Virus record (IMG/VR): IMGVR_UViG_3300045988_109836
Source of the DNA: a virus
Strand: one strand, 5' to 3'
Length of the DNA: 64,000 nt
Under the pieces are notes generated by a model. It saw only the letters and a list, made by a program, of their open reading frames with translations. It made no database searches and had not been told where the DNA came from. Position 1 is the stretch's first letter, and each line of letters begins with the position of its first letter. Positions 1,525-55,412 of the stretch are shown one piece after another. The position numbers and the translations under genes are program-made.

Positions 1525-4500
1525 TTAGAACCATGACGGATGTTGTTTCTTGTAATCTTCGTAACTGAACATCCTTGTACATCCTGCAAAACAACCGTTT
1601 CCATCAATTCTATCTATAGAAGGGAATCCAATTTGTGCGCCGAATATTCTACCTAAATCAAATATCAAAGGCATATATGCGGCTAGTAATGTAGCGCCGC
1701 CTATCTTACCAACCCATCTCGGCTGTGCCGTCATACTTGAACAGTCTTTAAACGTATTTACACAATTAAATACATGTTTCAAAACGCCGGATTCTATAAA
1801 AGCATTAAGTCCGCTTGAATTTGTTACATCACCAAACGTGTATTCTGATGTCTGTAAGTTACTACACCCCTCAAACATACTTTTAATGCTTACCGATACA
1901 GAATGTCCCGGTGGTGTAACGGGGTTGCCTTGTGAACCTGCTGTTCTCAAATTAATACACCCACTGAAACACTCTACATAAGTATAACATTCCGTCGATT
2001 CTGAAAACAAAGAAGATGTTATCGTTGTTAGTCCACTATTCTTAAACATTGCTAATGCACTAACTATGTTAGGAATTATTACCCCACTCACATTCAACAG
2101 ACTGCTGCACCTCTCAAACATTCTGTCACAAAACACTCTGTTTGCACTAAAATTAAATGCACTTGAACTTATACTTGTCAAATTTTCACATTCATAAAAC
2201 GCCTGAGCCATCGTTAATTCCTGTACAGAGCCAGAAAACATATTAGACGGAAGAGAAGATATACCGGAATCAATACAAAATGCGTTTGCGACTTGTCTTT
2301 TCCCCGAAAAATACTTGAATACTATTCTACAAGGAGATTGTAAATTAGTACAACCGCTAAACATATATTGGCAACTACTTATGTTTAATGCGCCTATATC
2401 GTTACTTATACTTGACATTCCTGTACATTTAGAAAACATATAATCCAAGAATGTTCCATTACTTGATGTCCTTAATTGTCCTTGTACCGAAGATATACCC
2501 TTACATCCGCTAAAACAATAGGAGTAATCGTTTATTATACTTCCTCCAAGTATGCTTGACAAATTTATGGGACCACTCAATCCGCTATCCTTATATGTCT
2601 GCACGAATGTACCACTTGATACAAACCCAAATAATCCTTCTGGTACGCCTTTCAGACTTGAACATCCCTCAAAAAAAGAATCGGTAGAACCGCTCATTAA
2701 ACTTGTAGTCCAACTTACAACCGAATAGAGGCTGCTGCAATTCTTGAACGCCCCTTTATTCCACGAAGTCCTTACATCTTCCACAAACCATTTTATTACC
2801 TTTGTCAAGCAATTCTGGAAACCTGCAAAATTAGAAGCACTCCATGACAAATTAGCCTGCATGCCGTTAAAATCAAACAAAATTATCTTCGTTCCGCTTG
2901 AATTATAGGTGTGTGAGCTTGTTCCTATTGTCTGCTCGCCGTCACCCCATTTTACACGCAAATTGTTAAGTCCTGTAGAGGTTGTATTCATCACCGGAAG
3001 TGTCAAGTTCATACCATTTGACACAAGAACCTCCAATACCGCACCATCTTCCATCGTGATGTTGATTGTCTTTTGAAATTCTTCCGGACCTACCGTATAA
3101 TTTCCTCTTTCCGTAAAATAATTCTGACTTGTAGCTACCCACGCATAGGTATCGTTACATGGCACAATCCATGATACAGAACCGGAAGAGCTTGTTACTC
3201 CAGAACTTACATTGTCCTCTATAGTCACTCCAGAAATAGGAGAGCCGTTTTTGGTACGCACATTATATGTCACCTGGCATTTATTCCTCGGCATCGTAAC
3301 ATTAACATATACATCATCATCTTGTACACTCACAGCGCCATTCTGGCTTTGATATCCTGCTTTTGTGGTCTGCCAGTTAAAATTGCGTGGCGGTACATAT
3401 CCACCAAAAGTGGCTTTTCCGTTTGCGGTCGTATATTGTGATTCATTGCCAAGAACTACCTTCACTCTTTCGATAGGATTTCCGGTATCATCCACAACCG
3501 TAAAGTAAACCCTGTACAGATTAACGCTCAATATAATAGTCGCGTTTGTGTCCGTTTCCTCTACCTGCACAAACGTGTATCCTTGTGTATATTCCGGTAA
3601 CTTGCTTGCATAGGCGTTTCCGCTTGTTCCGGCCTCTACAATGAAAGAACACTGTCCCGTCTGACCTGTATATTGCGTTTGTCCGTTAAACGTCACCTGT
3701 GCGTTCTTTACTACACTTCCGTATCTATCTTTCACGAAGATAGTCAGTGTTACCATCTTTACAGTAAAGTTAACCGGAACCTGTGTATTTCCATATACAG
3801 AGAACGAAGACACCACATCGTTACAATATCTATAAGAAGCCCTGTAATTATAACTTCCGGAAACCAATTGCGTAGTCACCAAACCAAGTTCATTAGTTAT
3901 TAGTGGTTCGCCTTGTCCTATAACCTCAATTTCAGCGCCAGAAGCCTGTACGCCACCAACAGAAGCGTTAAACGTCACATTGTAAGGAACCGCAGCTTTC
4001 TCACTCATTCTTATGGTATATTCATTATCACCTGCCTTTATATTGACGTTTCCCTTTGCCGGGTTATAATCCTGGTGAGACGCGCTCCACTCCCATACGC
4101 CAAGTTCAAGCGTCCAACTTGCAGCAATACCGTTATTGTTAGAATACCTCGTTTCCCCGTTTATTGTCACCACTGCATTTTGAATAGGAGCTTCTGTCTG
4201 TATATCAATAACCTTTACTGTCAGTCTTCCCGTTTGCTTTATCAAGTCTACAGTTATTGCCAACGGCTGGTTTATGACGACTGCCGTTCCGGTTCTTGTC
4301 TCATACCCTTCTCTTGTTACGCTCCACGGATAACTACCTGGTACCCTGTTGAATACAGCGTTACCGCTCGCGTCCGTGTTGGCCGTCTGTTGTTCTTCCC
4401 CTACACCCAGGACTATAGGCTGATTCTTTACTGGTTGGTTATTTATTCTAACTGTAAATATAATGTCATAGGTTACAAGCTTCAATTGCACCTCCACACG

Positions 4501-6981
4501 TTTGTTTTCCCCATTCACCGTTACGACACCTTGTTTGGTATAATAACCTTCTTTTTGTACGGTCCAGTTGTAACCACCGGATATCCGGATAAATTGTGCC
4601 TGCCCACCACTCGTGCTTATCGCTTCCGTTCCTATGGTAACCAAAGCATCGTCAAGCGGTGTATCGTTATCGTCCGTAACATAGAAATCAATCAAATAGC
4701 CTATCTGTACCAAATCGACTTCTACTGTCACATCCCTATCCACGACTTCTACCGTTCCTTCTTGTCCTTTAAACTCTGTTTTTGACACCTTCCAGGAATA
4801 GGAACCTGCTATCTCCACAAACTTTGCAATACCATTACTTGCCGTTTGTAGCGTCGTGCCGTTGAAAGTAACATTCGCTTTTGCTACCGGTAATCCGTTG
4901 CTTCTCACGACAAAGTTTATATTGTATTTCGGTATAGGATTAAATTGTATGTCTATAACCGCATTTCCGTATATGGTAAAATCCTTTTCTACGGTTATAT
5001 ATCCTTCTTTCACGACCTTATAATGATACGTTCCTGCCGGATATACAAACCCTGTTGCAAGACCCTGTGCATTAGAGCTTCCGGTTTGATTAGGAATATC
5101 CTTGCCTGTCACCAATACAGAGGCACCGGACACCGGGTCTACGCCATCCCTTATACGGAATGTCACGTTATAGTACGGTATCTTTTCCATCTCAATTTCT
5201 ATGTTGGTGGAATCCACAATTTCCGCGTTTCTTCTTACCGTATAGTAGTCTTCGTATTCTGCCGTATATTCGTATATTCCCGGAAATACCTCGAACGTCG
5301 CTATGCCGTTTTGTCCGGTATACTGAACTTTTCCTGCAAACGTTACCTTCACGTTCTGCATCCAGTCTTTCGTTTCCTTGTCACGGACAAAGAATGTCAC
5401 GACACGTTCATAGGCAGCACCTTTCAACTGTATGTATTCTACCGCATCCTTGTCCACTAATAGAGAATTCTCTACGCTTTCAAAGTTATCGGCTTCCACC
5501 TCATAATACCATTGTCCGCGCGGTAATATTATCTTTGCTTCTCCGTTTACATCCGTTACAAGCTCTTCCCCGTTTATTGTAATTCTCGCATTCGGTATGT
5601 ACTTGTTCCGATTAGAAAACACCTTGAACAATATCTGATATTCCTCTTCTCCAATATATGGTCTTATTAATTCGCTGCCGAATATGTTCTTATATCCAAC
5701 AAGGTAGTTTTTTAGGAAGGTCTCTACAGTGAATTGCTTCTGATATGCGTTGTTTTTATAATAGGCGGCTATAATATCTCTTTCCCCCAAATATCCCTGT
5801 GAAAACGGCAAATACAACGGCTTTACATGAAAATCGTAAATATATACATACGGCTGGTTGGAAGTCGTTCTTTCCTGCACGAATATCGGTGCTATATACT
5901 TCATACCCGGCTTTATTGACAAGGCACGTCCGGACGGGAAATTAAGCGCTGGCGCATTCAAAAACTTCTCGTTCGTTGACAACAGTATTCCTTTTATGTA
6001 GTAATATATACCGTCGTTCTTTATGTCCAGATATTCGTTTTCGTGGAACCATAGAGAGCTTCCGGTTATCTGTCCGTTCTCCAGTATACCCATAGGCAAC
6101 GGTTCACCGTCTACCGTCTCATATCCTGCCACTCCAAATTTAAGGTTCTGGTTCTCTATTGCAGATACCTTTACTTGTAATGATATTTCGTATGATAAAT
6201 TAGGGTCTATGATAATAAGCTTGTCCAAGTCAACCCTTCCGTCTATACCTACAGTCTGGCTACCGAAAAAAGTCATTGCATTAAATATCTCTTCATCATC
6301 TCCGTTTTCGTCCTGGGTAATGCTTATACTTTCCGGTATCAATAGAGGGTAATTATTCAAGTCCTCTACTCCTTTTGTATATTCATACGCTTTTGATACG
6401 TTCATTACCGTATTCGTCCGGTCACATGTGGGTGAGCTATATCCCATCGCCCATCCTGTAGCTTCCGGTCTCAACAAGGCAAATATAAACTCGTCCAAAG
6501 AATTATACCTTATCAATCGCAACAACTCACCCAATATCTCACCTTCCTTGCTTATGATGTCAAGTCTTCCACGTTTTGAATATTCTTCCAGGTAGTTGTA
6601 AAATAGATATTCCATTTGTTCCTGGCTATCTACCATATTAGTAACCAAACCTCTATTCTGGATAAACATCTCAAACAGAATCTGATTCGTGTCTATCTTC
6701 TTGTATTGCCTTGCATACAACACTATCAAAGCGAATATATGGGTTATAGTTCCCCAAAAGACACGGAAATCCTCGTTCTCTTTCTTTTTTAGGAACGTAG
6801 GCAAAATTCCCCTTCCTTCCAGTTTTTCGAGCACGTTTTCTGCCCACCGTATCACTTCCTTGTCGTTTTCCTCGAAAAAACGACTGAAAGGCAAATTATC
6901 ATATATAGGTGTGGACTGGGGTAAAAATAATCCCCCACACGGGTTTTCTTTCTTTATTCTTTTTTCCATGTTGAGACACAA
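1525..6981 (-). CDS. Large tail fibre/adhesin: N-terminal anchor, about ten CarboxypepD_reg-like beta-sandwich repeats, and a C-terminal BspA-type leucine-rich-repeat (LRR_5-like) domain
   Basis: 1818-aa uninterrupted ORF. It contains repeats of about 85 aa with the pattern V.V.D..g.p...A.V...G....T..nG.a.f....G.Y.y.v.k.GY. The last ~479 aa (about 1528-2964) carry repeated F..C..L..V/I units such as AFKNCSSLYSV, FFEGCSSLKGV, CFSGCKGISSV, MFSKCTGMSSI, MFSGCTNLQSP, AFYECENLTSI, MFERCSSLLNV, MFEGCSNLQTS and TFKDCSSMTA. Confidence 0.75.
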   Translation of the reverse strand: MCLNMEKRIKKENPCGGLFLPQSTPIYDNLPFSRFFEENDKEVIRWAENVLEKLEGRGILPTFLKKKENEDFRVFWGTITHIFALIVLYARQYKKIDTNQILFEMFIQNRGLVTNMVDSQEQMEYLFYNYLEEYSKRGRLDIISKEGEILGELLRLIRYNSLDEFIFALLRPEATGWAMGYSSPTCDRTNTVMNVSKAYEYTKGVEDLNNYPLLIPESISITQDENGDDEEIFNAMTFFGSQTVGIDGRVDLDKLIIIDPNLSYEISLQVKVSAIENQNLKFGVAGYETVDGEPLPMGILENGQITGSSLWFHENEYLDIKNDGIYYYIKGILLSTNEKFLNAPALNFPSGRALSIKPGMKYIAPIFVQERTTSNQPYVYIYDFHVKPLYLPFSQGYLGERDIIAAYYKNNAYQKQFTVETFLKNYLVGYKNIFGSELIRPYIGEEEYQILFKVFSNRNKYIPNARITINGEELVTDVNGEAKIILPRGQWYYEVEADNFESVENSLLVDKDAVEYIQLKGAAYERVVTFFVRDKETKDWMQNVKVTFAGKVQYTGQNGIATFEVFPGIYEYTAEYEDYYTVRRNAEIVDSTNIEIEMEKIPYYNVTFRIRDGVDPVSGASVLVTGKDIPNQTGSSNAQGLATGFVYPAGTYHYKVVKEGYITVEKDFTIYGNAVIDIQFNPIPKYNINFVVRSNGLPVAKANVTFNGTTLQTASNGIAKFVEIAGSYSWKVSKTEFKGQEGTVEVVDRDVTVEVDLVQIGYLIDFYVTDDNDTPLDDALVTIGTEAISTSGGQAQFIRISGGYNWTVQKEGYYTKQGVVTVNGENKRVEVQLKLVTYDIIFTVRINNQPVKNQPIVLGVGEEQQTANTDASGNAVFNRVPGSYPWSVTREGYETRTGTAVVINQPLAITVDLIKQTGRLTVKVIDIQTEAPIQNAVVTINGETRYSNNNGIAASWTLELGVWEWSASHQDYNPAKGNVNIKAGDNEYTIRMSEKAAVPYNVTFNASVGGVQASGAEIEVIGQGEPLITNELGLVTTQLVSGSYNYRASYRYCNDVVSSFSVYGNTQVPVNFTVKMVTLTIFVKDRYGSVVKNAQVTFNGQTQYTGQTGQCSFIVEAGTSGNAYASKLPEYTQGYTFVQVEETDTNATIILSVNLYRVYFTVVDDTGNPIERVKVVLGNESQYTTANGKATFGGYVPPRNFNWQTTKAGYQSQNGAVSVQDDDVYVNVTMPRNKCQVTYNVRTKNGSPISGVTIEDNVSSGVTSSSGSVSWIVPCNDTYAWVATSQNYFTERGNYTVGPEEFQKTINITMEDGAVLEVLVSNGMNLTLPVMNTTSTGLNNLRVKWGDGEQTIGTSSHTYNSSGTKIILFDFNGMQANLSWSASNFAGFQNCLTKVIKWFVEDVRTSWNKGAFKNCSSLYSVVSWTTSLMSGSTDSFFEGCSSLKGVPEGLFGFVSSGTFVQTYKDSGLSGPINLSSILGGSIINDYSYCFSGCKGISSVQGQLRTSSNGTFLDYMFSKCTGMSSISNDIGALNISSCQYMFSGCTNLQSPCRIVFKYFSGKRQVANAFCIDSGISSLPSNMFSGSVQELTMAQAFYECENLTSISSSAFNFSANRVFCDRMFERCSSLLNVSGVIIPNIVSALAMFKNSGLTTITSSLFSESTECYTYVECFSGCINLRTAGSQGNPVTPPGHSVSVSIKSMFEGCSNLQTSEYTFGDVTNSSGLNAFIESGVLKHVFNCVNTFKDCSSMTAQPRWVGKIGGATLLAAYMPLIFDLGRIFGAQIGFPSIDRIDGNGCFAGCTRMFSYEDYKKQHPSWF

Positions 6982-7048
6982 TTAATTGCGCAGTAAAAAT
7001 ACGATTAATTTTGGATATTACGAAAACAAACGCAACGAAAATACTGTA

Positions 7049-7129
7049 GAACCGTTCCACTACCTCAATCTCCTTTGTTCAAGACAGTACAATAACAATA
7101 GAGGCTCTGAAGGTAGGGGTGTGGGTGAA
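7049..7129. repeat. IR-L: left copy of a perfect 81-bp inverted repeat
   Basis: gaaccgttccactacctcaatctcctttgttcaagacagtacaataacaatagaggctctgaaggtaggggtgtgggtgaa is the exact reverse complement of 10089-10169. I checked this base by base. Confidence 0.97.
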
Positions 7130-8582
7130 CAACAGAAGAGTAGAACAATATTCTACATATATAGGCATATATGATAAACCGTATAAAGGGGCTTATACTG
7201 GTGTTGTAAATTTACCAAGTGAAGAAAGTAAATTGTATGCTATTAGTAATTCTTTTGGTATTGTATTCCCTATGTATTATAGGGATACATATATGGTTGG
7301 GTATTCTGTCTATCTGGCCAGTAGTAAATTTAATGAATGGCTTATAGCTAAGTTATATAAAGGTAATAATATATGGAGTAATAATTATCCAAATTCAATA
7401 GATGATTATAATATTTTTGGTTTATCAATAAGTTATCCTTATTATTATTTTAAAGAAAATAATAATTCAGTAATTACATTTATTTCTTATGCAATTGACT
7501 TAAGAATAACTTGGTATGTGATACTAATTTATGGAGATACCAGTTCTAAGTTAAGTTCATATATGTCGCAAAGATTTTATACCAGTAATGCAGTAGGAGA
7601 CCAACATAAATATTTTAATAATTATTCTGTAAAGAAATATGCTTCTGTTATTAAATGTATTCCTTCTTCAAGAGGTTATGTTTATATTTATACTATTGGA
7701 AACCACGGTAATTCTTTTTTTCGGATAATAAGAGGTGAAACATCGAATAATGGTTATCCAACTGAATATCAAATTAGTTATTTAGATATATCGGGATATC
7801 CTTACAAAGACGAAGGTAGAGTAGAACATATGGGATGGTTAGTATTGAGAAGTGATAACGAAAAAGTGATTATTTTAGTAAAATCACAAGATAGAACATA
7901 TGGAGATACGCATGCTAAATTTTATTACGGAATATGGAAAGCGTCTGTAGGGCAATATGGAGAAAGTTTATTATCAAGTAGTAATTATAGATGTTATTAC
8001 AACATTCCCTCTGCAATTACATCTGTAATAGGTGGTGATTACTGGGTATCGCCAGATTTAAAATGGTTATTCTACATATCACTAAGTGGAGCTAATTACC
8101 AAGGATTTTCTAAAGGATTACATACTATAAAAGGGTCATCAGCTCTTTTTGGAGATAATGGATGGACTGGAGTTTCTTATGAAATGGAAGGAGGAGGTAC
8201 AGATATTTTAAACGCTTGTCAGAACTATTATATATTAGATGTTCAATTTAATAGCAAATCTGATAAAATAATGGTTCTTGGGAATTCTTCTAAAGGTGCA
8301 TTTACAGATGTGGAACCTCGATATAGTTATGCAGAAGGTATTCAACCAGATATAATACTTTATTTTATTTGGGTGGAAAATAAGAAAAAATTTATCAAAT
8401 TAAATAGTTCTTTTATAGGAGGAGATGCGCTTTGGAATGATTATAATAACTCTATATCTGGAGGCAAAGGTAATGCCTATAAACCTTTAATCAATTTTGT
8501 AAATGGAGAAATTAACTTCATGTATCCTGGAGGGAATGAGCCGTTTAATGCGTATAGATATAATTTGAGTTTCGGAGATTGA
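7050..8582 (+). CDS. Silent alternative C-terminal cassette of the 3420-aa fibre, with no start codon or promoter of its own
   Basis: The frame opens right after TAG at 7047-7049 and reads NRSTTSISFVQDSTITIEALKVGVWV. This is identical to the IR-encoded peptide in the 3420-aa ORF. It then continues into ~484 unique aa. The track ORF 7119..8582 only begins at a GTG inside the IR. The last ~200 aa are homologous to the active C-terminus: YYNIPSAITSVIGGDYWVSPD vs CYNNIPSSITNNMGGNVWMSKD, NYYILDVQFNSKSDKIMVLGNSSKGA vs NYYVLDVIFNKDGSKMIVLCNGQKGA, and endings LSFGD vs LTFND. Confidence 0.8.
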   Translation, partial: NRSTTSISFVQDSTITIEALKVGVWVNNRRVEQYSTYIGIYDKPYKGAYTGVVNLPSEESKLYAISNSFGIVFPMYYRDTYMVGYSVYLASSKFNEWLIAKLYKGNNIWSNNYPNSIDDYNIFGLSISYPYYYFKENNNSVITFISYAIDLRITWYVILIYGDTSSKLSSYMSQRFYTSNAVGDQHKYFNNYSVKKYASVIKCIPSSRGYVYIYTIGNHGNSFFRIIRGETSNNGYPTEYQISYLDISGYPYKDEGRVEHMGWLVLRSDNEKVIILVKSQDRTYGDTHAKFYYGIWKASVGQYGESLLSSSNYRCYYNIPSAITSVIGGDYWVSPDLKWLFYISLSGANYQGFSKGLHTIKGSSALFGDNGWTGVSYEMEGGGTDILNACQNYYILDVQFNSKSDKIMVLGNSSKGAFTDVEPRYSYAEGIQPDIILYFIWVENKKKFIKLNSSFIGGDALWNDYNNSISGGKGNAYKPLINFVNGEINFMYPGGNEPFNAYRYNLSFGD

Positions 8583-8589
8583 TAGTTTA

Positions 8590-8636
8590 TAAAAAGCGTC
8601 CATACCAATTAAAAAAGTATGGACGCTCGTTTTATT
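8590..8636. terminator. Bidirectional intrinsic terminator between the two convergent fibre cassettes
   Basis: The stem is agcgtccatac (8595-8605) paired with gtatggacgct (8617-8627). An A-run lies upstream and cgttttattt downstream, so both strands see a hairpin followed by a U-run. Confidence 0.8.
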
Positions 8637-11600
8637 TAATCATTAAAAGTAAGAGAAGCATAATATGCTGTCGCATTCTCACTATACGATGGATAAACAT
8701 AACTCATATCCCATGTGTTCCCTAAATAATTCTGGTTAATACTAAAGAATGGTCTCAATTTACCACTTCCAGAAGCGTTATATTTGTTCCAGAAATTAGT
8801 AAATCCTACTATATTATATGGTATATTTATCCATTTACCACCATTTAGCATTTCAAAACAAAATATATTAGTAGGATGTATACCTTCTACATAGGAATTA
8901 GCAATAATCGCTCCTCCTTGTGCTCCCTTTTGTCCATTACAGAGAACAATCATTTTAGAACCATCTTTATTAAATATAACGTCAAGAACATAATAATTAG
9001 CAAGAGTGCTTCTTAATTCTGATACAAAGTTATCATTAATAGTTATTGATGTTGCAGCCCAGCCGTTTTCATTAACTAAAACGGAAGTGCTTCTTACTAT
9101 ATTTATTCCTTTCGACGCTCCCCCAGAACCCTTGCCAACATAAAACATAAATCTCTTATCTTTTGACATCCACACATTACCTCCCATATTGTTAGTAATA
9201 GAAGAAGGTATGTTATTGTAACAATGCCAATATTGCAAACTACTACTACCTTTTATATAATTCCATGTAGAAGAACCTTTCCATACCAATACATAAAAAT
9301 CAAAAGTTAGATTTTCTTCTGAAAAAGTCTTTTGAGGGCCGTATACAAACAATATCAATTGATGTTTGGACAGATTAATATACACTCTCTTGTAAAAGAA
9401 TATATTGATTTTTCTTCCAACAGTAGGCCCATTAACTTTTAAGCTATAAGAACTCATAGAAGAGCCGATATCCCAAGATTGAAGTCTTATACTAATTTGA
9501 TTGTTATTATTTGGTGTTTCGGGTATCGCAATTATTTCTTGACTATTAATGCTTTCATTAATTGAATTCACTTCTTCTTGTGTTACTAAAACACATAAAG
9601 AATTACGTACAGAATAATTATTACTATTTTGAAATACTGAACCTAAAGTGCTATCATTATCGCCTTTTACATAATTTAAAAAGCCTTTTCTTATATTCAA
9701 TTGCCCCCATGTTAACCTATTTGCACCACTAAATCCACAACATACGTAGTTCAAGTTTTGAAAATCACCATTAGAAGAAGGACTTAAATAAAAACTACCT
9801 TGTATATGACTATATCCATACAGTCTATATGAACCATTCGCTCTATTAGAATCAAAAAATGTTGAAACTCCATATACATTAGGGGAGTCAACGAAAAGAG
9901 AAGCTACCGTTTTTAGATTTATCATCTCTAATTCATTTACTTTACTGGGGTCATATGTCAATACAGCTGCACACGAACTACTTGGATATGTCTTATTTGC
10001 CTCTATAACTGGTTCTACATATAACCCAGAATACGAATTTTTACGAGATGTTGCGTCTCTTCCGAAATTACTGCTGCTAAATTCGTCCTTCACCCACACC
10101 CCTACCTTCAGAGCCTCTATTGTTATTGTACTGTCTTGAACAAAGGAGATTGAGGTAGTGGAACGGTTCGGATAATTAAAGTTTCCTGTTCCTGTTCCTC
10201 CCCATGTCGTGCTTCCTCCAGCTTCCCACCAGTAGTTACCCGGCTTTATCTTCAAAACTACCTGTCCGCTCGTGTTTGTAGTGCCGCTGTATGATGTACT
10301 ACTGTTGTTGCTTGACAACTTCACTATTACACCGCTTCCTACTCTTGAACCTGTACTCACGTTGTTTACGTTTATTGTTATCGTTACTTCACTCGGTGTC
10401 AAATTGATTGTCAAACCTCCTGTGTTATTGCTTGTCGTATTTGACGTGACGTATCTTGTAGCGGTTACTACATATCTATTTGTCAGTCCAGATACGTATA
10501 CAGTTGCTTGTCCTGCGCTGTTTGTCGTTACTGTCTGTGTTGCATGTCCTGCACCTACTTCACCAGAAGTCTGGTAACTACCATTTATACCGTACATATT
10601 TATTGTAGCACCACTTACAGCCGCACCTGTATAAATATTCCGCACTATCACCGTCATACTCTTTATTGCAGTAGAATAAAATGCTGTAGCGTCACTGTTA
10701 TGTCCTATATTGCTAAAATTATAATTAGGAGTGATGGAATACGGTGTTTCGGTTGTCGTTGTACCTGTCACGAAATAATTCGCCAATTTTGCCGTTATCG
10801 TTGTAGTAAGACCTGCTATCCATGTATATGTAGCCAAATAATACACTACGTTATTTGCCGTCAATGATACTGTTGTTGCTACTCCTGCCGTTGTAAATAC
10901 TGGCTTTACCAGATTAGCAGTTCCCCACCATCCTAATACTGGCGTCGAAAATGGTATTTTTAGCCTAAATTCTGTACCTACACTCTTCGTCAATCTTACC
11001 GCATTCTGTGTAGTAGTTGCCAAAGGCATTGTTATCGTCGTGCTTCCGGCTACCCAATAACTCGTACCACCACCCCATGACAATGTATATGAACCTACTA
11101 TCATTGGACCGAATGACACTTGACCGCTGCTGTTCGTCGTTCCGGAAAATGTAACAGAAGAAAGGCTCTTGTTCGTCAACGTTACCGGACATCCGTTCGC
11201 ATTTCCTTTTACTGCTCCTTGATAGTAGTCCTTTATGGTGAATGTTATAGAAGAACTTGTCTCGCTCATTTTCAGACTGTATGGGCTTGCCTGTCCTGCT
11301 GATAATGTACCGGATAACGAATTATAATTCGTTTTTGAGAATGAGTAGCTTCTTCCGATACCACTCCTGTATGCAGTCCAGTTACCGCTACTGTCTGTCG
11401 TTCCTGTCTGTCCGAAATAGGAACATGATACACCGCTTATGTTTGTTCCATAATTAGAACTCTTTATATTGAATGTAAGACGTGCAGTTATATTGAGCGT
11501 CATTGTCCAGGATTGATTTTCAGATACCCACGTCCATTCTTGGCTTGCATTACTATAGTAACTTGCATAGTTTTTCGACGTATAGGTGTAATTAATACCA

Positions 11601-14600
11601 GCATATACAGTATTTGACTTTTTACCGCTTCCGTCCAACGTTATTTCTCCTGCCGGGGCATTTGAACCAGTAGGTACACTTCTTACTATCACCGCCCCAC
11701 TTAAAGGATAAGTGGCGGTAATGTTTGGAATTTTCTCTACAACCGTCAATGTCACCGTCCTTGTCGTTCTGTTCATCGTCACTGTATAGGGTGATGTCTG
11801 TGTGGCGGTTACTGTTCCTACATAGTTATTGAAATACTGTGCCGTGGCAGTCATTTGTCTATCAAGTCCACTTCTGTAAAAATCTCCTCCAGATGCTTTT
11901 GTCTGTCCGAAATAGGTGATTGTTCCCAAAAGCGCATTACTTGTATTGTAAATATTTGCTACCGTATTAATAGTTATCTTCTGATTACAAGCCAGCCATA
12001 CATTTATAAGTTGCCCTGCTGATGTATAGGTAATCTTCTGGCTCGCATTGCTGTAATAATTCGGTCTTGTTACTGGTGATATTGTAATAGGTGTACCAAG
12101 ATAAGTCACAAAAGATACACTACCGTTCGCATCCAACGTTAACGGACTTGTAGAAGCTGCTGGACTGAAATTCATCTTCATAGATGAGTATTGTTCCATT
12201 GCAAAATTGACAAATGTATCTGTTCCAGAAGCTGCCTTTCTTGTTATTTTTACAGCATTTGAACCACTGCTATTGTTATATACATTTACGTTATTCATCC
12301 CTTTATCAAAAAAGAAGTCTCTATAGGCGTTTAGTATCTTGTCATAGGTACATTTACTTAAAATTGTAGCATCTGACGCATTTTGTACATTACTTCCAGT
12401 TATGTCGTATACAGTAGCCATTTCGAGATACCATGTAACTGGTCTGCTTCCGCCATTCAGATAAAAGAAGTTGGTTGTTGAAAAACTTCCAGTAGAACCA
12501 CATCTTACATAATAGGCATAAGTATACCATCCCCCTGTTCCGTTTCCATTATTAGAATCAACCCATTTTCTTACTGTATTATCTCCTGTTGCATTACTTG
12601 CAAAAACCAATTGTCTTCCTGCCGGAACCTTTGCTCTGAAATATGCTACAAATTCCTTGTTTGCTGCTGTTGGTGTACCAAGATAGAAGCCGCCTAATCC
12701 AGGCGTTACGGCAGAACTTGCATCCGTAGTGATTTCAAGCATATATTTAGGAGTGACTGGTATAACTTCACTTACCGACAAACTTACTGTAGCGGTTGAA
12801 CGTGTCATTACTACATTGAAAGGTGATGCAGTGCTTGACGTTATACTGCCTCTGTAATTGCCGTGATAAGTGGCTGTAACATCTACGTTTCTTGTTACAG
12901 AACTTCTATACAACGACACATTACCGCTGCTGTCTGTCTTTCCCGTCTGATGGAAATATGATACCGTAGCTCCACTTAGATTTGTTCCACTCGGCACATT
13001 TGACTTGACGTTTATAGTTATCTTTGCCGTTACCGTCAAATCCATAGTCCATGACTGGTTGGCGGCTGTATAGGTATGTTTCTGTGTCGGATTGCTGTAG
13101 AAGTTCGGATGTCCTACTACTGTAAACGTCATTTCCGTACCTATATATCCGTTGAATGTCACTGCACCGTTCGCGTTCGTAGTAAGTGTTCCGGTTGTAC
13201 TTCCTGCCGTGTATTTTATCTGCAAGTTCTGATAATAGGTTGTCTGTGCTGGCGTTACTTCTCTTACTACAAGTGTAACCGGATTGGCTGCACGTGTCAT
13301 TATGATATTGAATGGGTTTGGTGAGTTGTAAGCTATCTGTCCGGTATAGGATCCCAGATTTGATGCACTTACTGATATATTACGAGTGTTAGCACTCCAA
13401 TATAATACTGCATTACCGCTACTGTCTGTTGTCTTCGTTTGACTGAAATAAGTTACTGTAGCTCCCGACACATTCGTTCCAGGCACGTTGTCCTTCACAT
13501 TTACAGTTATCTGTTTTGCACAAGTGAGATTCATGTTCCATTTCTCACTGGATGTAGTAAATATATGTGTTTGTTGATAATTCGTGTAAAACGGTCTTCT
13601 GTCCGGTGCTGATATGGTGAATGTGATGGGAATACCTAAATATGCCTCAAAAGTGTTTTTACCTGCATCTACTGTTCCATTTCCTGCTGCGGATGTATAA
13701 GCAAGTGTAAAGTTGGTATTATTGTCAAGAATTACACTCGCACCACCTGGTATCACTTCATATTGCTGCACTGTCACTACATGTTTGTTTCTCAACATAG
13801 TAACATTAAGCGGTGAAGCCGTGGTAGGTGCAATGGTTCCATTTACTGTACTATAATCGTCCTTGTCAAGCGAATACTCTTTACTCAATGCAGACCTGTA
13901 CAACGAAGCGTTGCCGCTCGCGTCCGTCTTCACTATCTGTTCACTGTACGCAACCGTTACACCCTGGATATTCGTTTTCGCATATACATCTTTTACATTT
14001 ACAGTTATCTTTGCAGTCACATTCAAATCGAACTTCCAGATTATACCGTCTTCATTCCATGTATACTTCTGTGTTGGGTTACTGTAAAAGTTAGAGTAGG
14101 AATCAGTCGTGAACGTGTATTCGAGACCCTTAATCAATAACTCGTTCGTATATCCGTTCTCATCCAATGTCAATTTTATTGTTCCTGCCCTGGAAGTCAT
14201 TGTTACAGTCTTATTTGCAAGAAACGCTCTTCCCGCTGTACCGTATATTTCCGATACCTGTATACCTGCGTTAATCAGTTCGTATTGTACTTCTACATCC
14301 AACACTGTGCCATTCTCATTCTGCGGATGTATGAATGTATCTGTAGTAACTTCACCTGCAAGTACGGAATAGGTGTAATTACCTATCGGAACATTCTGCA
14401 TCGTAACTACACCGTTCGCGTTCGTTTCACCCTCAAACACGAGGTCTTTCAATACAGTGTTTTGTATTCTTACCAAAATTCCGTCCGGTGGTAAAACTCC
14501 TTGTGTAGAAACATTGAACGTTACCGGATATGACTTTGCAGCCAATTCTATATCCATTCTCGTTTCCGAACCCGTAGGCTTGAAATTCCCGGTCTTGGTT

Positions 14601-17600
14601 GTATAATATTGCTTACTTGCACTGTAAGACATATTTACTGGAGACAGATACATATACACTATCCCGTCTGTATTTGTCGTTTGTGTCTGATTTACAGACA
14701 TTCCGCTAAATACAACCGTTACTCCACTCAATTTCCCGTACAAGTCGGAAATCACATATACCGGAATTCTCTTTGAACATGTATATACAAGGTCTTTTGT
14801 ATTCGCATCTCTATAATTGATTATAGCTGTTGTACCGTTGCCGGAATAGAATCCTACTGGCTGCACCTGGAAACGTTCTGCAATCCCTGCATATACTGTT
14901 TTTGTAAATTGTCCGCTTGCATTCGTCGTTACGTTCACACCGGAAGATGTACTATTGTCGTTGTAATAGCATGCAAGAACAAGACCTGTCTTTACCGGAT
15001 TTGATGCTGTAGTCGAAATAGAGGGTATTATTTCTTTTACCGTGAATGTGACTGATTTTGTTCTTCTTGTTAATACTGCTGAATGTGTCTTGTCCGTAGG
15101 CAGATAGATGTTTTCTGTCTTGCTGTTGAAATTACTGTTTCCTCCTCCATAGGTTATCGTATAATTTCCAGGCGGTATATTGAAATTTCCATTTCCTTGC
15201 GATATCAATTGTCCGCTTGCATTCGTTGTTCCAGAAAAACTATATGCTTGTGAAGATGTTCCACCCCATGCACTCGTAACCGTTACCGGACAACTTTCTG
15301 CTGCTTTTGAATAGGGATTATTTGCTGTCAACGTCAGACTGAATGTCATTGCAGCATAACCCATGATTATATCTATATAGTCAACCGACAACGGGGGTGT
15401 AAATGTTCCGGTCTTTTTCGTATGGTCTGCCACTGTACACTCGTAGCTCATTGCGATAGGTGAGATATACACTCTTGCTGAACCATCACTTCCGGACGTA
15501 ACGGTTTGAGGCAGTGACATTCCGGACACCTTTATAGTCGCATTTTCAAGCGGTCTTAGAGTGTTCTGCTGTTTTACTCTTAATTCAAGTCTTTTTGAAG
15601 CTGTTATTTCCATGAGTGTAGGTACACTCGCTCCGAAATCCCAGTTCTTAATCAGCAACCCTTCGTTCTCATAGAAGCCTTTCTGTTTGATTGTCAACTG
15701 ATAATCAATACCTGGCATTACTTCCGGAAATATCTTGCCTTGTGCGTTTGTCGTATATTCTTTTACTGTACTATTGTACATATTTTTTACTGACACGACA
15801 ATTCCTGCTTTTACCGGATTGAAATTCAGTGCAGCCTTTTGTTCTGCCACTATCTTAACGGTTACCTGGCTTACTGGTGTTGTTATCGTCACATCCACAT
15901 AGAAAGACCTTGCAGCCGCATCACGTGTAGTGTTCGGCTGCACTGTCAGTACGGAACCCTTAAATGATGCTATATCGTCACTTGACACGTTAAACGTCAA
16001 TTCTGCGCCACCATCTGCAAAATTATATGGTTCGTCCTCACCGCCTAACTCTACCCGTCTGAATGTCTTTATATAGTCCATCAAGTCAAACGTTGCCCCT
16101 TTGTTGGGTATGATTAGGTTTTCGGGTGTATGGACTATATAATAATAGCTATCGTTCGACAACGTTTCTGCCGTATTCTCACCATTGAATCTTACTGTCG
16201 TCGCGTCACCAGATACACCAGGTATACTTTCGATTACATCTACTTCCGGCTCTATCTCCTTTCTCGTCATAGTGAAAGGAAGTTCTATGTCTTTCAGCTT
16301 TTCAAGTGTTACCGCCTGGTTTTCTACCGCATTGTAATATCTATGCGAAGCGTTCCAAGTATATTCCCCCGCCTCTGCTCCAAGCAACAACACGCCTATA
16401 TCGTTCGTATAGCCGGAATCCACCTTTATTCCCGTACCCTTGTTTATCAATTCGATATATACTCCAGAAATAGGGTCTTTTGTTATTGCGTCTGTCGCAG
16501 TGTATGTTATTACCGTGTCCCTCAACTCTAAAAAGATTGTTTCGGGTACATCCTGGTCCTTAATAGTCACCGTTCCGGTATATCTCTTGTAATTTCTGTG
16601 TGTTACCGTATATTCATAATCACCATTGGGTAATGTTATACTCGATACACCATTGACATTCGTTATATGCGTTTCTCCGTTAATCTGGATTTCCGCACCT
16701 TGTATGTAGTTACCGTTCTCTATGTCTCTGACAGTTAGTCTGAATGTATAGAATGCCTGTTCAAGTTCAATTATTTTTGATACCTCCGTACCATCCACAA
16801 CAACGAAGTCGTTGACCGACATATAACCGGACTTAAAAGCGGTATATTCGTATGTTCCATTAGGAAGGCTGACAATCGCCACACCTTCTGAATCTGTTAA
16901 ATATGTCGATTCGTTGATTTTTATTGTCGCTCCTTCCAACACCATTTGTGTTGCCGCATCCAATACGGTAAACTTTATGGCATACGGAATCGCGGTCATT
17001 TCAACAAGTATACAATTAGGGTCTTCTGCCGTTACCTCAATCTCCTTGTTGAGTTCTTGGTAGTCCTTTTTTACTACCTTCATTTCATACCTTCCTGTCT
17101 GCAATCCGATTGTTGCCTGCCCTTCCTTGTCTGTTGTCTCTGTAATATCCTTTATGATAATATCGGCTTCCGGAACATAAATATTTCTATTTCTGTCTAT
17201 TACAGCAAAATTAACTTCCTTGGTTGTAAGAAACATTCTTTGGAATACCTCTACTGGCTGGTTTTCTACTGTAAAAACACTCTCTATAGTTTGAAAACCT
17301 GCCTTCTCTAAAGTGTATTCGTATATACCAGGTTCGAGACTTATTGTCGCTGTTCCGTCCTCTCCTGTTTCAGATGTGTAAACACTTGTCTTTACCGTAA
17401 CACCTTGTAACGGTGCTTCTCCTTCATATACAGTAAACGTTACTGGATAAGGTGTTGCAACAAAATCGTTTATATTTATGTATATAGGGTTGTTCAAAAC
17501 CACAAACTCACCCTTCTTTTGAGTCCAGTTCGTTTTTGAAAGGATGTATTCATATTCCCCGTTTTCGAGAAGAATGTTTGCCGTACCGTTACTGTCCGTA

Positions 17601-18898
17601 ATGATTACCTTGTTTCCTATTGTTATATATGCACCCGGTACGGCTACATTCTTGGTATTTGTCACTGTAAACGAACACAAATATTTCTGTGACGCTATGA
17701 CTGATTGCGACCCTTTATATATATCACTTTCCCCTGCCGGATAGAAAATATTGGATAGACTGCTTCCCGAATCATACAAGATGTTTCCTTCCAAATCTCG
17801 CATTCTGAAACCCTTGATACGCGGCAACATGTTCAAAGGAACCTCTTCGTCAAAGTAGGGGAAGAAGTATTCATCTGGTACATATTTCACGCCTTCTGCT
17901 GTCTTCACGACTTCCAACAAATCATCCCATTCTACCTTTTTACCTGCTTCCCAGAAACGGAAATCAAGATATTTTGTCATTGCAATCTGGATATTTTTTC
18001 TTACATCCGCAATCACTGCATTAGGTGACAATTCCACACGGAAATCTACCCCCTCTTCACCACCTACATACATCCATTTTGCATTTTCAATCACTATTCC
18101 AAGCGTATTCCCTTGCAAGTCAAGTTCTGTCAATCCGAAATAGGGTGTTGCTTTTGTCAATAATTCTTCCAATTCATCATCCGTAAAGAAAGAACCGTTT
18201 TGCGTCACAAGGTAGATATGTGTCTTTCCATCCTCGCCCAAACCGACATTCATAACCTTTAGAATGCGTGAATCCAAATCCTGGAATATCTGTGTCCAGC
18301 CTTCCATTGTATCGGTGGAAAGCTTGTTGTTGTAATTTATTATTCTGTTTCTGAATGTCTCGTCGTCCTCATAGTCACGTCCACCAATAGCTGCGTATTC
18401 ATTAGTGCACTCTATATGTGTCAACGGTCTTGGCGATACCTCTGTAATACTATTCGCCTCCACATTCGTAGCCGACCCGGTTATAACACTGCGTACACTG
18501 ATATATCCATATCCCGACTTATCAACAGTAAACGGCTGGTCTACAATGAATTGTACTCCATTCTTTGATATAAACTTTGTGCCTACCTCGTACTGTGTAC
18601 CTGGTTCAGCGAATACACGTACATAAGTAGAGGAACCAAGCGCTTCTTTTCTCGGACTGACACCGAACAACGCTGCCGACTTGTCAAGATAATTTCCTGT
18701 TGCCGATTTCGGGAAAATCTGTGCCTCCACTATGGCAATATCCTTTATCGCTTTTTGTGCCACCTTTGCGGTGCCATAGGCAACACCATTAAGTACAGAA
18801 CCGTCCGCAATATTTGAAACACGGTCGGTCTTGTTCAAGAACATTTCAATCCACAAATTTTTTAAATTTGCAATCGTATTCGCTGTTTTAGTAATCAT
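8636..18898 (-). CDS. Giant baseplate-J-like/tail-fibre fusion protein (3420 aa) with the currently active C-terminal tip (cassette A)
   Basis: The N-terminal ~400 aa resemble Baseplate_J/gp6-type wedge proteins (AAIGGRDYEDDETFRNRI). These are followed by roughly two dozen CarboxypepD_reg/Ig-like repeats, judged by eye, including five or more tandem two-domain units such as NFYSNPTQK...ITVNVKD....GATV.Y..QT..TDSSGN..LYRS. A non-repeat insert of ~186 aa lies at about 12190-12748. The unique C-terminal ~484 aa follow the IR. Confidence 0.85.
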   Translation of the reverse strand: MITKTANTIANLKNLWIEMFLNKTDRVSNIADGSVLNGVAYGTAKVAQKAIKDIAIVEAQIFPKSATGNYLDKSAALFGVSPRKEALGSSTYVRVFAEPGTQYEVGTKFISKNGVQFIVDQPFTVDKSGYGYISVRSVITGSATNVEANSITEVSPRPLTHIECTNEYAAIGGRDYEDDETFRNRIINYNNKLSTDTMEGWTQIFQDLDSRILKVMNVGLGEDGKTHIYLVTQNGSFFTDDELEELLTKATPYFGLTELDLQGNTLGIVIENAKWMYVGGEEGVDFRVELSPNAVIADVRKNIQIAMTKYLDFRFWEAGKKVEWDDLLEVVKTAEGVKYVPDEYFFPYFDEEVPLNMLPRIKGFRMRDLEGNILYDSGSSLSNIFYPAGESDIYKGSQSVIASQKYLCSFTVTNTKNVAVPGAYITIGNKVIITDSNGTANILLENGEYEYILSKTNWTQKKGEFVVLNNPIYININDFVATPYPVTFTVYEGEAPLQGVTVKTSVYTSETGEDGTATISLEPGIYEYTLEKAGFQTIESVFTVENQPVEVFQRMFLTTKEVNFAVIDRNRNIYVPEADIIIKDITETTDKEGQATIGLQTGRYEMKVVKKDYQELNKEIEVTAEDPNCILVEMTAIPYAIKFTVLDAATQMVLEGATIKINESTYLTDSEGVAIVSLPNGTYEYTAFKSGYMSVNDFVVVDGTEVSKIIELEQAFYTFRLTVRDIENGNYIQGAEIQINGETHITNVNGVSSITLPNGDYEYTVTHRNYKRYTGTVTIKDQDVPETIFLELRDTVITYTATDAITKDPISGVYIELINKGTGIKVDSGYTNDIGVLLLGAEAGEYTWNASHRYYNAVENQAVTLEKLKDIELPFTMTRKEIEPEVDVIESIPGVSGDATTVRFNGENTAETLSNDSYYYIVHTPENLIIPNKGATFDLMDYIKTFRRVELGGEDEPYNFADGGAELTFNVSSDDIASFKGSVLTVQPNTTRDAAARSFYVDVTITTPVSQVTVKIVAEQKAALNFNPVKAGIVVSVKNMYNSTVKEYTTNAQGKIFPEVMPGIDYQLTIKQKGFYENEGLLIKNWDFGASVPTLMEITASKRLELRVKQQNTLRPLENATIKVSGMSLPQTVTSGSDGSARVYISPIAMSYECTVADHTKKTGTFTPPLSVDYIDIIMGYAAMTFSLTLTANNPYSKAAESCPVTVTSAWGGTSSQAYSFSGTTNASGQLISQGNGNFNIPPGNYTITYGGGNSNFNSKTENIYLPTDKTHSAVLTRRTKSVTFTVKEIIPSISTTASNPVKTGLVLACYYNDNSTSSGVNVTTNASGQFTKTVYAGIAERFQVQPVGFYSGNGTTAIINYRDANTKDLVYTCSKRIPVYVISDLYGKLSGVTVVFSGMSVNQTQTTNTDGIVYMYLSPVNMSYSASKQYYTTKTGNFKPTGSETRMDIELAAKSYPVTFNVSTQGVLPPDGILVRIQNTVLKDLVFEGETNANGVVTMQNVPIGNYTYSVLAGEVTTDTFIHPQNENGTVLDVEVQYELINAGIQVSEIYGTAGRAFLANKTVTMTSRAGTIKLTLDENGYTNELLIKGLEYTFTTDSYSNFYSNPTQKYTWNEDGIIWKFDLNVTAKITVNVKDVYAKTNIQGVTVAYSEQIVKTDASGNASLYRSALSKEYSLDKDDYSTVNGTIAPTTASPLNVTMLRNKHVVTVQQYEVIPGGASVILDNNTNFTLAYTSAAGNGTVDAGKNTFEAYLGIPITFTISAPDRRPFYTNYQQTHIFTTSSEKWNMNLTCAKQITVNVKDNVPGTNVSGATVTYFSQTKTTDSSGNAVLYWSANTRNISVSASNLGSYTGQIAYNSPNPFNIIMTRAANPVTLVVREVTPAQTTYYQNLQIKYTAGSTTGTLTTNANGAVTFNGYIGTEMTFTVVGHPNFYSNPTQKHTYTAANQSWTMDLTVTAKITINVKSNVPSGTNLSGATVSYFHQTGKTDSSGNVSLYRSSVTRNVDVTATYHGNYRGSITSSTASPFNVVMTRSTATVSLSVSEVIPVTPKYMLEITTDASSAVTPGLGGFYLGTPTAANKEFVAYFRAKVPAGRQLVFASNATGDNTVRKWVDSNNGNGTGGWYTYAYYVRCGSTGSFSTTNFFYLNGGSRPVTWYLEMATVYDITGSNVQNASDATILSKCTYDKILNAYRDFFFDKGMNNVNVYNNSSGSNAVKITRKAASGTDTFVNFAMEQYSSMKMNFSPAASTSPLTLDANGSVSFVTYLGTPITISPVTRPNYYSNASQKITYTSAGQLINVWLACNQKITINTVANIYNTSNALLGTITYFGQTKASGGDFYRSGLDRQMTATAQYFNNYVGTVTATQTSPYTVTMNRTTRTVTLTVVEKIPNITATYPLSGAVIVRSVPTGSNAPAGEITLDGSGKKSNTVYAGINYTYTSKNYASYYSNASQEWTWVSENQSWTMTLNITARLTFNIKSSNYGTNISGVSCSYFGQTGTTDSSGNWTAYRSGIGRSYSFSKTNYNSLSGTLSAGQASPYSLKMSETSSSITFTIKDYYQGAVKGNANGCPVTLTNKSLSSVTFSGTTNSSGQVSFGPMIVGSYTLSWGGGTSYWVAGSTTITMPLATTTQNAVRLTKSVGTEFRLKIPFSTPVLGWWGTANLVKPVFTTAGVATTVSLTANNVVYYLATYTWIAGLTTTITAKLANYFVTGTTTTETPYSITPNYNFSNIGHNSDATAFYSTAIKSMTVIVRNIYTGAAVSGATINMYGINGSYQTSGEVGAGHATQTVTTNSAGQATVYVSGLTNRYVVTATRYVTSNTTSNNTGGLTINLTPSEVTITINVNNVSTGSRVGSGVIVKLSSNNSSTSYSGTTNTSGQVVLKIKPGNYWWEAGGSTTWGGTGTGNFNYPNRSTTSISFVQDSTITIEALKVGVWVKDEFSSSNFGRDATSRKNSYSGLYVEPVIEANKTYPSSSCAAVLTYDPSKVNELEMINLKTVASLFVDSPNVYGVSTFFDSNRANGSYRLYGYSHIQGSFYLSPSSNGDFQNLNYVCCGFSGANRLTWGQLNIRKGFLNYVKGDNDSTLGSVFQNSNNYSVRNSLCVLVTQEEVNSINESINSQEIIAIPETPNNNNQISIRLQSWDIGSSMSSYSLKVNGPTVGRKINIFFYKRVYINLSKHQLILFVYGPQKTFSEENLTFDFYVLVWKGSSTWNYIKGSSSLQYWHCYNNIPSSITNNMGGNVWMSKDKRFMFYVGKGSGGASKGINIVRSTSVLVNENGWAATSITINDNFVSELRSTLANYYVLDVIFNKDGSKMIVLCNGQKGAQGGAIIANSYVEGIHPTNIFCFEMLNGGKWINIPYNIVGFTNFWNKYNASGSGKLRPFFSINQNYLGNTWDMSYVYPSYSENATAYYASLTFND
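10089..10169. repeat. IR-R: right copy of the perfect 81-bp inverted repeat, inside the 3420-aa ORF
   Basis: Exact reverse complement of 7049-7129. On the minus strand it encodes NRSTTSISFVQDSTITIEALKVGVWV. Confidence 0.97.
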
Positions 18899-29455: not shown

Positions 29456-29459
29456 AATA

Positions 29460-55408: not shown

Positions 55409-55412
55409 GTCC

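Follow-up and report, generated by a model that had tools for sequence, protein, structure and literature searches.

How can a single phage gene end in two different ways? The question is raised by a stretch of viral DNA of 64,000 nucleotides (IMG/VR record IMGVR_UViG_3300045988_109836; the whole stretch is called the window here), in which an 81-bp sequence occurs twice in opposite orientation, once within a giant open reading frame (ORF) for a baseplate-J/fibre protein and once in front of an opposed coding sequence. We propose that the segment between these repeats (the arms), 7130-10088, works as an invertible cassette with two slots. The giant gene would be read from its constant part across a 26-codon junction formed by the arm and on into whichever 484-residue tip faces the constant part, and the other tip, on the opposite strand, would be left without a promoter and shut off by a stop codon in front of it. 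A central hairpin would end transcription arriving from both sides, and recombination between the arms would flip the segment, so that the tip is swapped in frame. We regard it as very probable that there is an invertible in-frame tip switch of some kind; the complete statement, a two-slot in-frame tip switch flipped by homologous recombination between the arms, is favoured with modest confidence.

The left arm is the exact reverse complement of the right arm over all 81 positions, and these two copies are the only ones in the window, where the chance expectation is zero (coordinates of all features are collected in Table 1). The right copy lies within the minus-strand giant ORF, which encodes 3420 amino acids (aa), and there forms a coding junction of 26 codons. 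Read in its plus-strand frame, the left copy yields the same 26 residues as the right one and continues without interruption for 484 codons to a stop at 8580-8582. The stop codon that immediately precedes this copy consists of two flanking bases and the first G of the arm, and the flank before the silent arm is conserved in relatives as well (...CTGTA, then the G of the arm). When 7130-10088 was inverted in silico, an intact ORF of 3420 aa resulted that ended in the other tip. Thus, what a preliminary description of this DNA, made from its letters, had reported on the repeat, on the placement of the right copy, on the TAG, shared peptide and 484-codon run-on of the left copy, and on an in-frame exchange of the distal 484 aa is correct. 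Its statement that the silent ORF lacks a start codon holds for ATG, which is missing from the silent frame within the first ~75 codons, and has to be amended for GTG, since in-frame GTG codons occur inside the arm (ORF 7119-8582).

The segment consists of two 484-codon cassettes and a 53-nt spacer, besides short overlapping ORFs; a chaperone ORF of the U/U′ type was not found inside it, in agreement with the earlier remark that separate chaperone genes are missing. The cassettes are convergent, and the hairpin between them (−22.4 kcal/mol, z = −6.4), with its T-runs on both strands, is likely a bidirectional terminator, as had been suggested; a simple terminator scan missed it because the loop measures 9 nt. 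A strong hairpin was present between the cassettes in 15 of 15 relatives checked and falls into two sequence families. Overall, the two tips of the window share 29% identity, and the conserved part is formed by the last ~200 aa, which bears out the description of them as diverged homologs. Equally, the switched protein is a baseplate-J fusion according to both Pfam (Baseplate_J at aa 68-194, ~18317-18697, E 3.8e-16) and PHROG 6, baseplate wedge. The G+C content of the invertible segment (window 7001-10000) is 29-32%, alike in both cassettes, versus ~41% around it, suggesting that the tips belong to an evolutionary pool of their own or are subject to a different mutational regime.

Related genomes contain both arrangements. 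With the silent tip as the query, 17 related loci were found on ~105-kb IMG/VR contigs, and its homologue was expressed, that is, fused to the giant ORF, in five of them and silent in 12. In the five fused loci (L001, L006, L007, L011 and L016), the tips are 67-72% identical at the aa level to the silent T18 cassette of the window, and each ends a giant ORF of 3412-3432 aa, where it follows the constant part and precedes the 1818-aa fibre gene. A degenerate arm pattern retrieved 58 stretches on 44 related contigs, with both arms present in 31; the architecture is common to ~45 related viral contigs of ~105 kb, with two arm copies per genome and arm boundaries alike. In all 31 two-arm contigs, one arm continues an ORF that is open for at least 187 codons (187-200; 561-600 flank bases examined), and the other directly follows a stop, with no open codon upstream. 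When tips were assigned to classes at 85% identity or more, 18 classes were obtained, the eight largest of which each occur in both slots (expressed/silent: T1, 7/5; T2, 2/5; T3, 5/1; T4, 1/5; T5, 4/2; T6, 4/1; T7, 3/2; T8, 2/2). Some genomes form reciprocal pairs (T7/T5 versus T5/T7, T1/T2 versus T2/T1, and T6/T2 versus T2/T6). With the segments of L027 and L048 in the same orientation (98.9% identity), their fibre-gene flanks, 99.5% identical, point in opposite directions. The expressed cassette of the window (T9) is 91-98% identical to the silent-slot cassettes of L076 and L077, two ENA assemblies, and to the T9 cassettes in the expressed slot of L004 and L005. The search of relatives for both orientations, which had been proposed as a check, was therefore positive.

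Where near-identical genomes had been assembled independently, the orientation was the same (L004 with L005, L076 with L077), which argues against a random assignment of orientation by the assemblers, although short-read assembly across an 81-bp repeat calls for caution. The exact arm core of the window was not found in IMG/VR, and among JGI and NCBI metagenome contigs only in L078. This contig has the same orientation and a different silent cassette, and its flanks are only 88-92% identical to the window; it thus provides no alternative orientation of the same strain. A megablast search of the region against GenBank phages gave no match. In at least 10 IMG/VR contigs of this phage family, of 83-89 kb, the distance between the contig start and a conserved small gene is 3-4.7 kb (for example, L270, L271, L277, L291 and L340); in contig 077053 (L340), this start lies within a few hundred bases of the 3′ end of the 1818-aa fibre gene, without reaching it. 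Breaks in assemblies thus tend to fall at the fibre module, where they would be expected if the region varies within samples. Flipping is presumed to take place within a population and not only over evolutionary time.

Two further signals do not depend on how the orientations were called. Silent cassettes were intact in 30 of 31 genomes, and within classes the ratio of nonsynonymous to synonymous substitution rates (dN/dS) ranged from 0.2 to 0.4, alike for silent-silent, expressed-expressed and mixed pairs (silent versus expressed pairs: 0.26 versus 0.29 in T2, 0.22 versus 0.23 in T7). Cassettes now in the silent slot have therefore been under the same protein-level selection as those in the expressed slot. 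The sole silent cassette with a premature stop (codon 95) belongs to L045 (contig 3300045988_116192, silent arm at 2158) and perhaps represents a copy in decay or a mistake of assembly. The second signal comes from the arms. Over 78 nt, the two arms of a genome showed no mismatch in 24 of 31 genomes (mean 0.45), compared with a mean of 4.3 mismatches between genomes (28 haplotypes; permutation p <= 1e-4), and the variable sites span positions 11-77, mostly at third codon positions. Arms that are identical within and different between genomes indicate gene conversion (concerted evolution) along the whole arm and hence recombination acting on the arms; homogenisation of this extent is not expected from a fixed crossover site of 2-8 bp.

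Table 1. Positions of the switch, its surroundings and other genes in the window.
Feature	Coordinates	Strand	Description
Second fibre gene, ~1814 aa (called the 1818-aa gene)	1525..6969	-	CarboxypepD_reg repeats; downstream of the switch
Intergenic spacer, 79 nt	6970..7048	.	Outside the invertible segment; conserved in relatives
TAG stop	7047..7049	+	Flank TA plus first arm G; bars read-in to the silent cassette
Left arm ("silent" junction)	7049..7129	+	81/81 versus right arm; encodes NRSTTSISFVQDSTITIEALKVGVWV in frame; stop directly 5′
Silent tip cassette, class T18	7130..8582	+	484 codons plus stop; without ATG start; continues the left-arm frame
Hairpin between cassettes	8588..8634	.	13-bp stem ~8592-8630; T-runs on both strands
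Expressed tip cassette, class T9	8636..10088	-	Final 484 codons plus stop of the giant ORF
Giant baseplate-J/fibre ORF, 3420 aa	8636-18898	-	Contains the right arm
Right arm ("expressed" junction)	10089..10169	-	Inside the giant ORF; encodes NRSTTSISFVQDSTITIEALKVGVWV
Constant part of the giant protein	10170..18898	-	Baseplate_J, then many CarboxypepD_reg/Ig-like repeats
Terminase large subunit	28526-31574	-	Terminase_6C
Resolvase-like ORF, 151 aa	39912-40367	-	HTH_17 plus two thirds of a Resolvase domain
Zeta-toxin, BACON, NUDIX-DUF5856 proteins	51257-52186, 53906-55462, 46949-48817	-	Listed together

What flips the segment? All substantial ORFs of the window were scanned against Pfam, and the genome outside the window (~41 kb) was covered via a close relative, IMGVR 3300029764_000001 (coding-strand ORFs of at least 90 aa). 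This relative has the same T9 tip and switch-adjacent flanks 74-89% identical to the window, and its five loci were merged without a mismatch. The scans revealed no intact serine or tyrosine recombinase among the ORFs of the window, no site-specific recombinase in the other ~41 kb of the relative, no Resolvase or Recombinase domain within 30 kb of the segment, no match to Phage_integrase (the Rci-type tyrosine recombinases), and no reverse transcriptase (RVT family) in either the window or the relative. The preliminary description had stated that no invertase is adjacent; this is the case, and extends by Pfam to the entire window and to the relative's remaining 41 kb. ORFs beyond the left edge of the window, as represented by the relative L002, included only TnpB and no invertase. 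That gene (OrfB_IS605 and a Cas12f-like TNB domain; L002 999-2213, minus strand) lies ~3 kb past the edge and is missing at this position in the window, L004 and L076, and is thus not a general feature of the switch. A shufflon of the Rci type was considered and rejected, as there are two arm copies only and no Phage_integrase match. Nor does the arm resemble a site for a Hin-type enzyme: no gix/hix-like dyad-symmetric core was detected in it (the best 12-2-12 dyad pairs 6/12, the shuffle mean being 6.7), and the motif AAACC..GGTTT was not found in the arm.

The only resolvase-like ORF encodes a conserved protein with an HTH of the excisionase type that matches a PHROG of IS607-type transposases. 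In this protein, YARVMN replaces YARVS, a Met falls on the serine of the ISC1926 TnpA catalytic domain (6dgc), and the DRLTR motif is lost. Its homologues, whose main cluster has 312 member sequences, are all ~150 aa long and read YARV(M/F), with Met or Phe at the position of the serine nucleophile. As an invertase, it was rejected, being devoid of the nucleophile and, like all its homologues, of the C-terminal helix. Judged from its sequence, it resembles a recombinase that has been domesticated and is catalytically dead, perhaps a DNA-binding regulator.

A set of genes for general recombination is present instead in IMGVR 3300029764_000001. It comprises RecA (E 3.8e-74), beside Rad50/SbcC-like and Mre11/SbcD-like genes, and further UvrD- and SNF2-type helicases, NAD ligase, RNase H, primase/helicase and a split DNA polymerase III (PolIII) alpha; RecA was found in 56 of 61 related loci, the closest relatives of the window included. 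The gene conversion described above means that the arms pair and recombine, and resolution of such intermediates by crossover inverts the segment. Given the lack of a recognisable invertase together with a full phage-encoded recombination set, a flip-flop by homologous recombination is the best-supported reading. The flipping agent would then be general homologous recombination between the arms, with no dedicated site-specific invertase; phage RecA and Mre11/Rad50-type and helicase functions are likely to do the work, during recombination-rich replication, and crossovers between the arms are presumably frequent enough for a switch within the population. In addition, arm homology would let co-infecting relatives trade cassettes, which would create a population-wide library of tips.

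The tips matched no Pfam or PHROG family, and a profile search for homologues outside this phage family returned only family members. Structure prediction had been proposed for both tips; the expressed one was modelled with AlphaFold (16 sequences) and gave a propeller at moderate confidence, with a predicted local distance difference test (pLDDT) score of 65, a predicted template-modelling score (pTM) of 0.74, and values mostly >70 for the C-terminal ~320 residues. Foldseek matched this model to sialidase-type six-bladed propellers (E about 1e-5, template-modelling (TM) scores 0.3-0.5), among them CyRPA, Treponema sialidase, GH93 arabinofuranosidase and the heads of henipavirus attachment glycoproteins. 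The expressed tip is thus predicted to end in a six-bladed beta-propeller, a fold that fits a glycan-binding or glycan-cleaving receptor module without proving one, and the tips may be receptor-binding modules that set the host range. Put together in full, the proposal is that apparently virulent human-gut phages possess a host-range switch without a dedicated recombinase, in which RecA-based recombination of the phage flips an 81-bp in-frame repeat that gene conversion keeps identical, two beta-propeller tips alternate, and the repeats serve as docking sites for the trading of tips during co-infection, with at least 18 alleles and two slots per genome. This wider picture is offered tentatively.

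Several points weigh against a switch driven by homologous recombination. At 81 bp, the arms are short for efficient recombination of the RecA type. In nearly all genomes the arm is 76-81 nt long, and such sharp conservation of length and boundaries would be compatible with a defined recombinase site too. The RecA region lies outside the window, so that RecA is deduced from relatives, and many ORFs are without a Pfam match, so that a phage protein of an unknown family is a possible agent. Bacteroidales carry many invertases that act in trans, and a host-encoded enzyme of this kind is possible too. Assembly from short reads can place a segment in the wrong orientation if the repeats around it exceed the k-mer, the closest strain match elsewhere (L078 only) carries the segment in the orientation of the window, and the two orientations were seen among near-identical segments of different samples, heterogeneity within one phage population being presumed. 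Finally, the tip model is of moderate quality (pLDDT 65; TM 0.3-0.5), and the receptor-binding role is therefore weakly supported.

The first of these points would be accommodated by a dedicated site-specific recombinase, host-encoded and acting in trans or from an unrecognised phage family, that recognises a site in the arms, the arms being kept long only for the sake of the junction peptide. The constancy of arm boundaries and length across ~45 genomes, the stronger conservation of the arms than of the adjacent upstream coding sequence (74-88%), their shortness as substrates for homologous recombination, and the many genome ORFs without a family assignment are all in line with such an enzyme, as are surveys that report invertible regions with no recombinase gene nearby (PMC9881135). 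It is the main rival, although considered unlikely: an intact serine or tyrosine recombinase is lacking in the window and in the rest of the close relative's genome, the sole resolvase-like ORF is devoid of the catalytic serine, the arm has no dyad-symmetric core above chance, and a short fixed crossover does not yield concerted evolution of the whole arm at synonymous sites. Moreover, the homogenisation of the arms shows that homologous recombination acts on them anyway. Alternatively, the locus might be a store of cassettes and not a working switch, the orientations being rare fixed outcomes of recombination during co-infection and the silent copy long-term raw material. Near-identical genomes from independent samples do agree in orientation (L004/L005, L076/L077), as do the window strain and L078, and cassettes have clearly been exchanged between genomes, resulting in a mosaic of 18 classes. 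However, silent cassettes that are intact in 30 of 31 genomes and under purifying selection as strong as that on expressed ones must often pass through periods of expression; both slots contain cassettes that are 98-99% identical (T1, 7/5; L027/L048), which means that flips recur within ~1% divergence; and the homogenised arms of 24 of 31 genomes imply that the arms continue to interact. A mere store is therefore improbable.

Less probable still is that the plus-strand cassette is a gene of its own, with a GTG start in the arm and a promoter in 6970-7048, so that fused and free tips would be made together and the repeat would be a remnant of duplication. In-frame GTG codons do exist at the end of the arm (ORF 7119-8582), gene callers annotate stand-alone proteins of 482-507 aa for such cassettes, and a perfect Bacteroides-type -7 box (TAATTTTG, 7006-7013) faces the cassette. 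Yet this motif is barely enriched (81 occurrences in the window versus 66 ± 10 expected) and not kept in all relatives, an ATG is missing from the first ~75 codons, a free tip would have no attachment domain, and the reciprocal arrangements and the homogenised arms would be left unexplained. That the repeat, or the differences in orientation, are artefacts of assembly is already largely refuted, and its probability is negligible. It is true that, without spanning reads, a De Bruijn graph gives an assembler no means of orienting a segment whose flanking inverted repeats exceed k, and that many related contigs of 83-88 kb break beside the fibre module. The architecture was, however, recovered in ~45 contigs from >10 samples and from JGI, ENA and NCBI sources, both arms are in frame, orientation was reproducible across independent assemblies of identical strains, and neither the selection nor the gene-conversion signal depends on the orientation calls. 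The switch flipped by homologous recombination between its arms thus remains the preferred reading.

Downstream of the switch lies the second fibre gene, with a tip that has no relation to the cassettes. This gene shows 92-100% identity among the IMG/VR relatives and 86-89% between those and the window. The constant part of the giant gene before the arm (10170-11700; a homologous 1.5 kb in L001-L017) shows only 74-88% identity among relatives; compared with the neighbouring fibre gene and with the arm (~4/78 differences), the shaft of the giant protein is thus hypervariable. This repeat-rich shaft also contains periodic direct repeats (D1-D5). The start of the 1818-aa gene is most likely the ATG at 6969 and not the TTG at 6981, and the spacer in front of it is, on sequence grounds, the candidate promoter region for this gene. 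A significant sigma-70-type promoter was not found in 6970-7048, and the Bacteroides -33/-7 pattern yielded no convincing promoter for the gene. The TAATTTTG box mentioned above is on the plus strand, 36 nt 5′ of the left arm, and is weak evidence. The preliminary description had called for a promoter of the 1818-aa gene in 6982-7048, with a weak candidate only; the spacer is conserved and holds no clear consensus promoter, and the start codon implied by that range is most probably to be moved to 6969.

As to the phage itself, its portal protein is 57% identical to that of an unannotated human-faecal phage record and ~35% identical to those of Chryseobacterium and Bacteroides myophages, and a BACON-domain protein is encoded in the window. 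The arm pattern did not occur in 185,579 species-representative bacterial genomes, which therefore contain no prophage copy and give no clue to the host. Since no integrase was found either, the phage appears virulent, and it looks like a virulent phage of gut Bacteroidota. Some other genes are of note in their own right. The terminase large subunit carries an intein-like insert associated with Hint and homing-endonuclease domains, and the gene downstream of it encodes a GIY-YIG/NUMOD homing endonuclease. A Zeta-toxin-domain protein adjoins the portal gene, and the structural region includes the BACON-domain protein and a 622-aa NUDIX-DUF5856 fusion. In IMGVR 3300029764_000001, PolIII alpha is present as two adjacent ORFs (76086-79761) of 531 aa (PHP and the N-terminal part) and 691 aa (finger and HHH domains), the gene being either split or disrupted by an element.

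If the proposal is true, large, seemingly lytic phages of the Bacteroidota type hedge their host range in the gut by swapping whole domains, for which a short in-frame inverted repeat and general recombination apparently suffice. Scans keyed to a nearby recombinase gene would miss such switches, and reference assemblies in a single orientation would under-report the receptor repertoire of the phages that have them. The repeats would double as standard junctions for tip exchange between phages, a natural modular design that might be imitated to redirect phages at gut Bacteroidota.

Inversion of tail-fibre genes is known from temperate enterobacterial phages with invertases of the Hin family, and the logic of the locus described here belongs to the principle of Mu G and P1 C, as had been recognised at the outset, and to that of programmed inversions that alter genes. 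As in Mu G, P1 and P7 C, e14 P and p15B Min (with Gin, Cin, Pin and Min), a segment lies between inverted repeats. As in these systems as well, the constant N-terminal part of the fibre is outside and two opposed C-terminal parts are inside, and inversion splices one of them in frame, the alternative being silent, without promoter and start. The differences listed earlier also hold, and further ones can be added. Here, an invertase of the Hin family was found neither near the segment nor, as far as the Pfam scans reach, in the genome, the arm has no gix/cix-like dyad site and the repeats are far longer, chaperone genes (U/U′) are not co-inverted, the crossover region is coding (26 codons), a terminator hairpin occupies the centre, and the switched protein is a 3420-aa baseplate-wedge fusion; moreover, the phage is apparently virulent, and its arms evolve in concert. 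In gut Bacteroidota phages, diversity-generating retroelements target the distal receptor-binding part of fibres, presumably for tropism switching. The variation seen here is a swap of whole domains and not targeted mutagenesis, and a retroelement was rejected as an explanation because the Pfam scans gave no RVT family and the only long repeat in the tips is the inverted pair. Flip-flop without a known recombinase is also familiar from the inverted repeats of herpesviruses and plastids. Full-text literature searches found no description of an invertase-less in-frame switch of tail-fibre tips in gut phages, in keeping with the initial assessment that none is established for contractile phages of the Bacteroidota type.

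Two published accounts offer a comparison. The survey of gene-altering programmed inversions by Milman et al. (NAR 2023; PMC9881135) concerns bacterial genomes, covers type I restriction-modification hsdS switches and prophage tail fibres, and names viruses as a future direction; it also cites earlier cases of invertible regions with no recombinase gene nearby and of inversions that were not fully abolished after deletion of a nearby recombinase gene. In those systems, as here, the repeats extend into a coding sequence and into a partial paralogue that lacks a promoter and lies on the opposite strand, and inversion leads to protein variants. They are, however, chromosomal or prophage-borne and mostly have a recombinase gene nearby, whereas the present switch resides in the large genome of a free phage from an uncultured gut family, with two cassettes per genome and at least 18 alleles in the population. 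In cyanophages of Anabaena, a block of ~30 kb inverts without a known recombinase, as established by polymerase chain reaction and read mapping, and no protein is altered (10.64898/2026.02.14.705889). Common to that isomerism and to the present case are both orientations among close relatives regardless of phylogeny, repeat copies that are kept identical, and the lack of an identified dedicated recombinase, general recombination being the proposed driver. The repeats of cyanophages, herpesviruses and plastids, however, measure from 400 bp to several kb and flip blocks of genes whose proteins remain unchanged, whereas here an 81-bp repeat lies inside a gene and the flip would change the C-terminal domain of its product.

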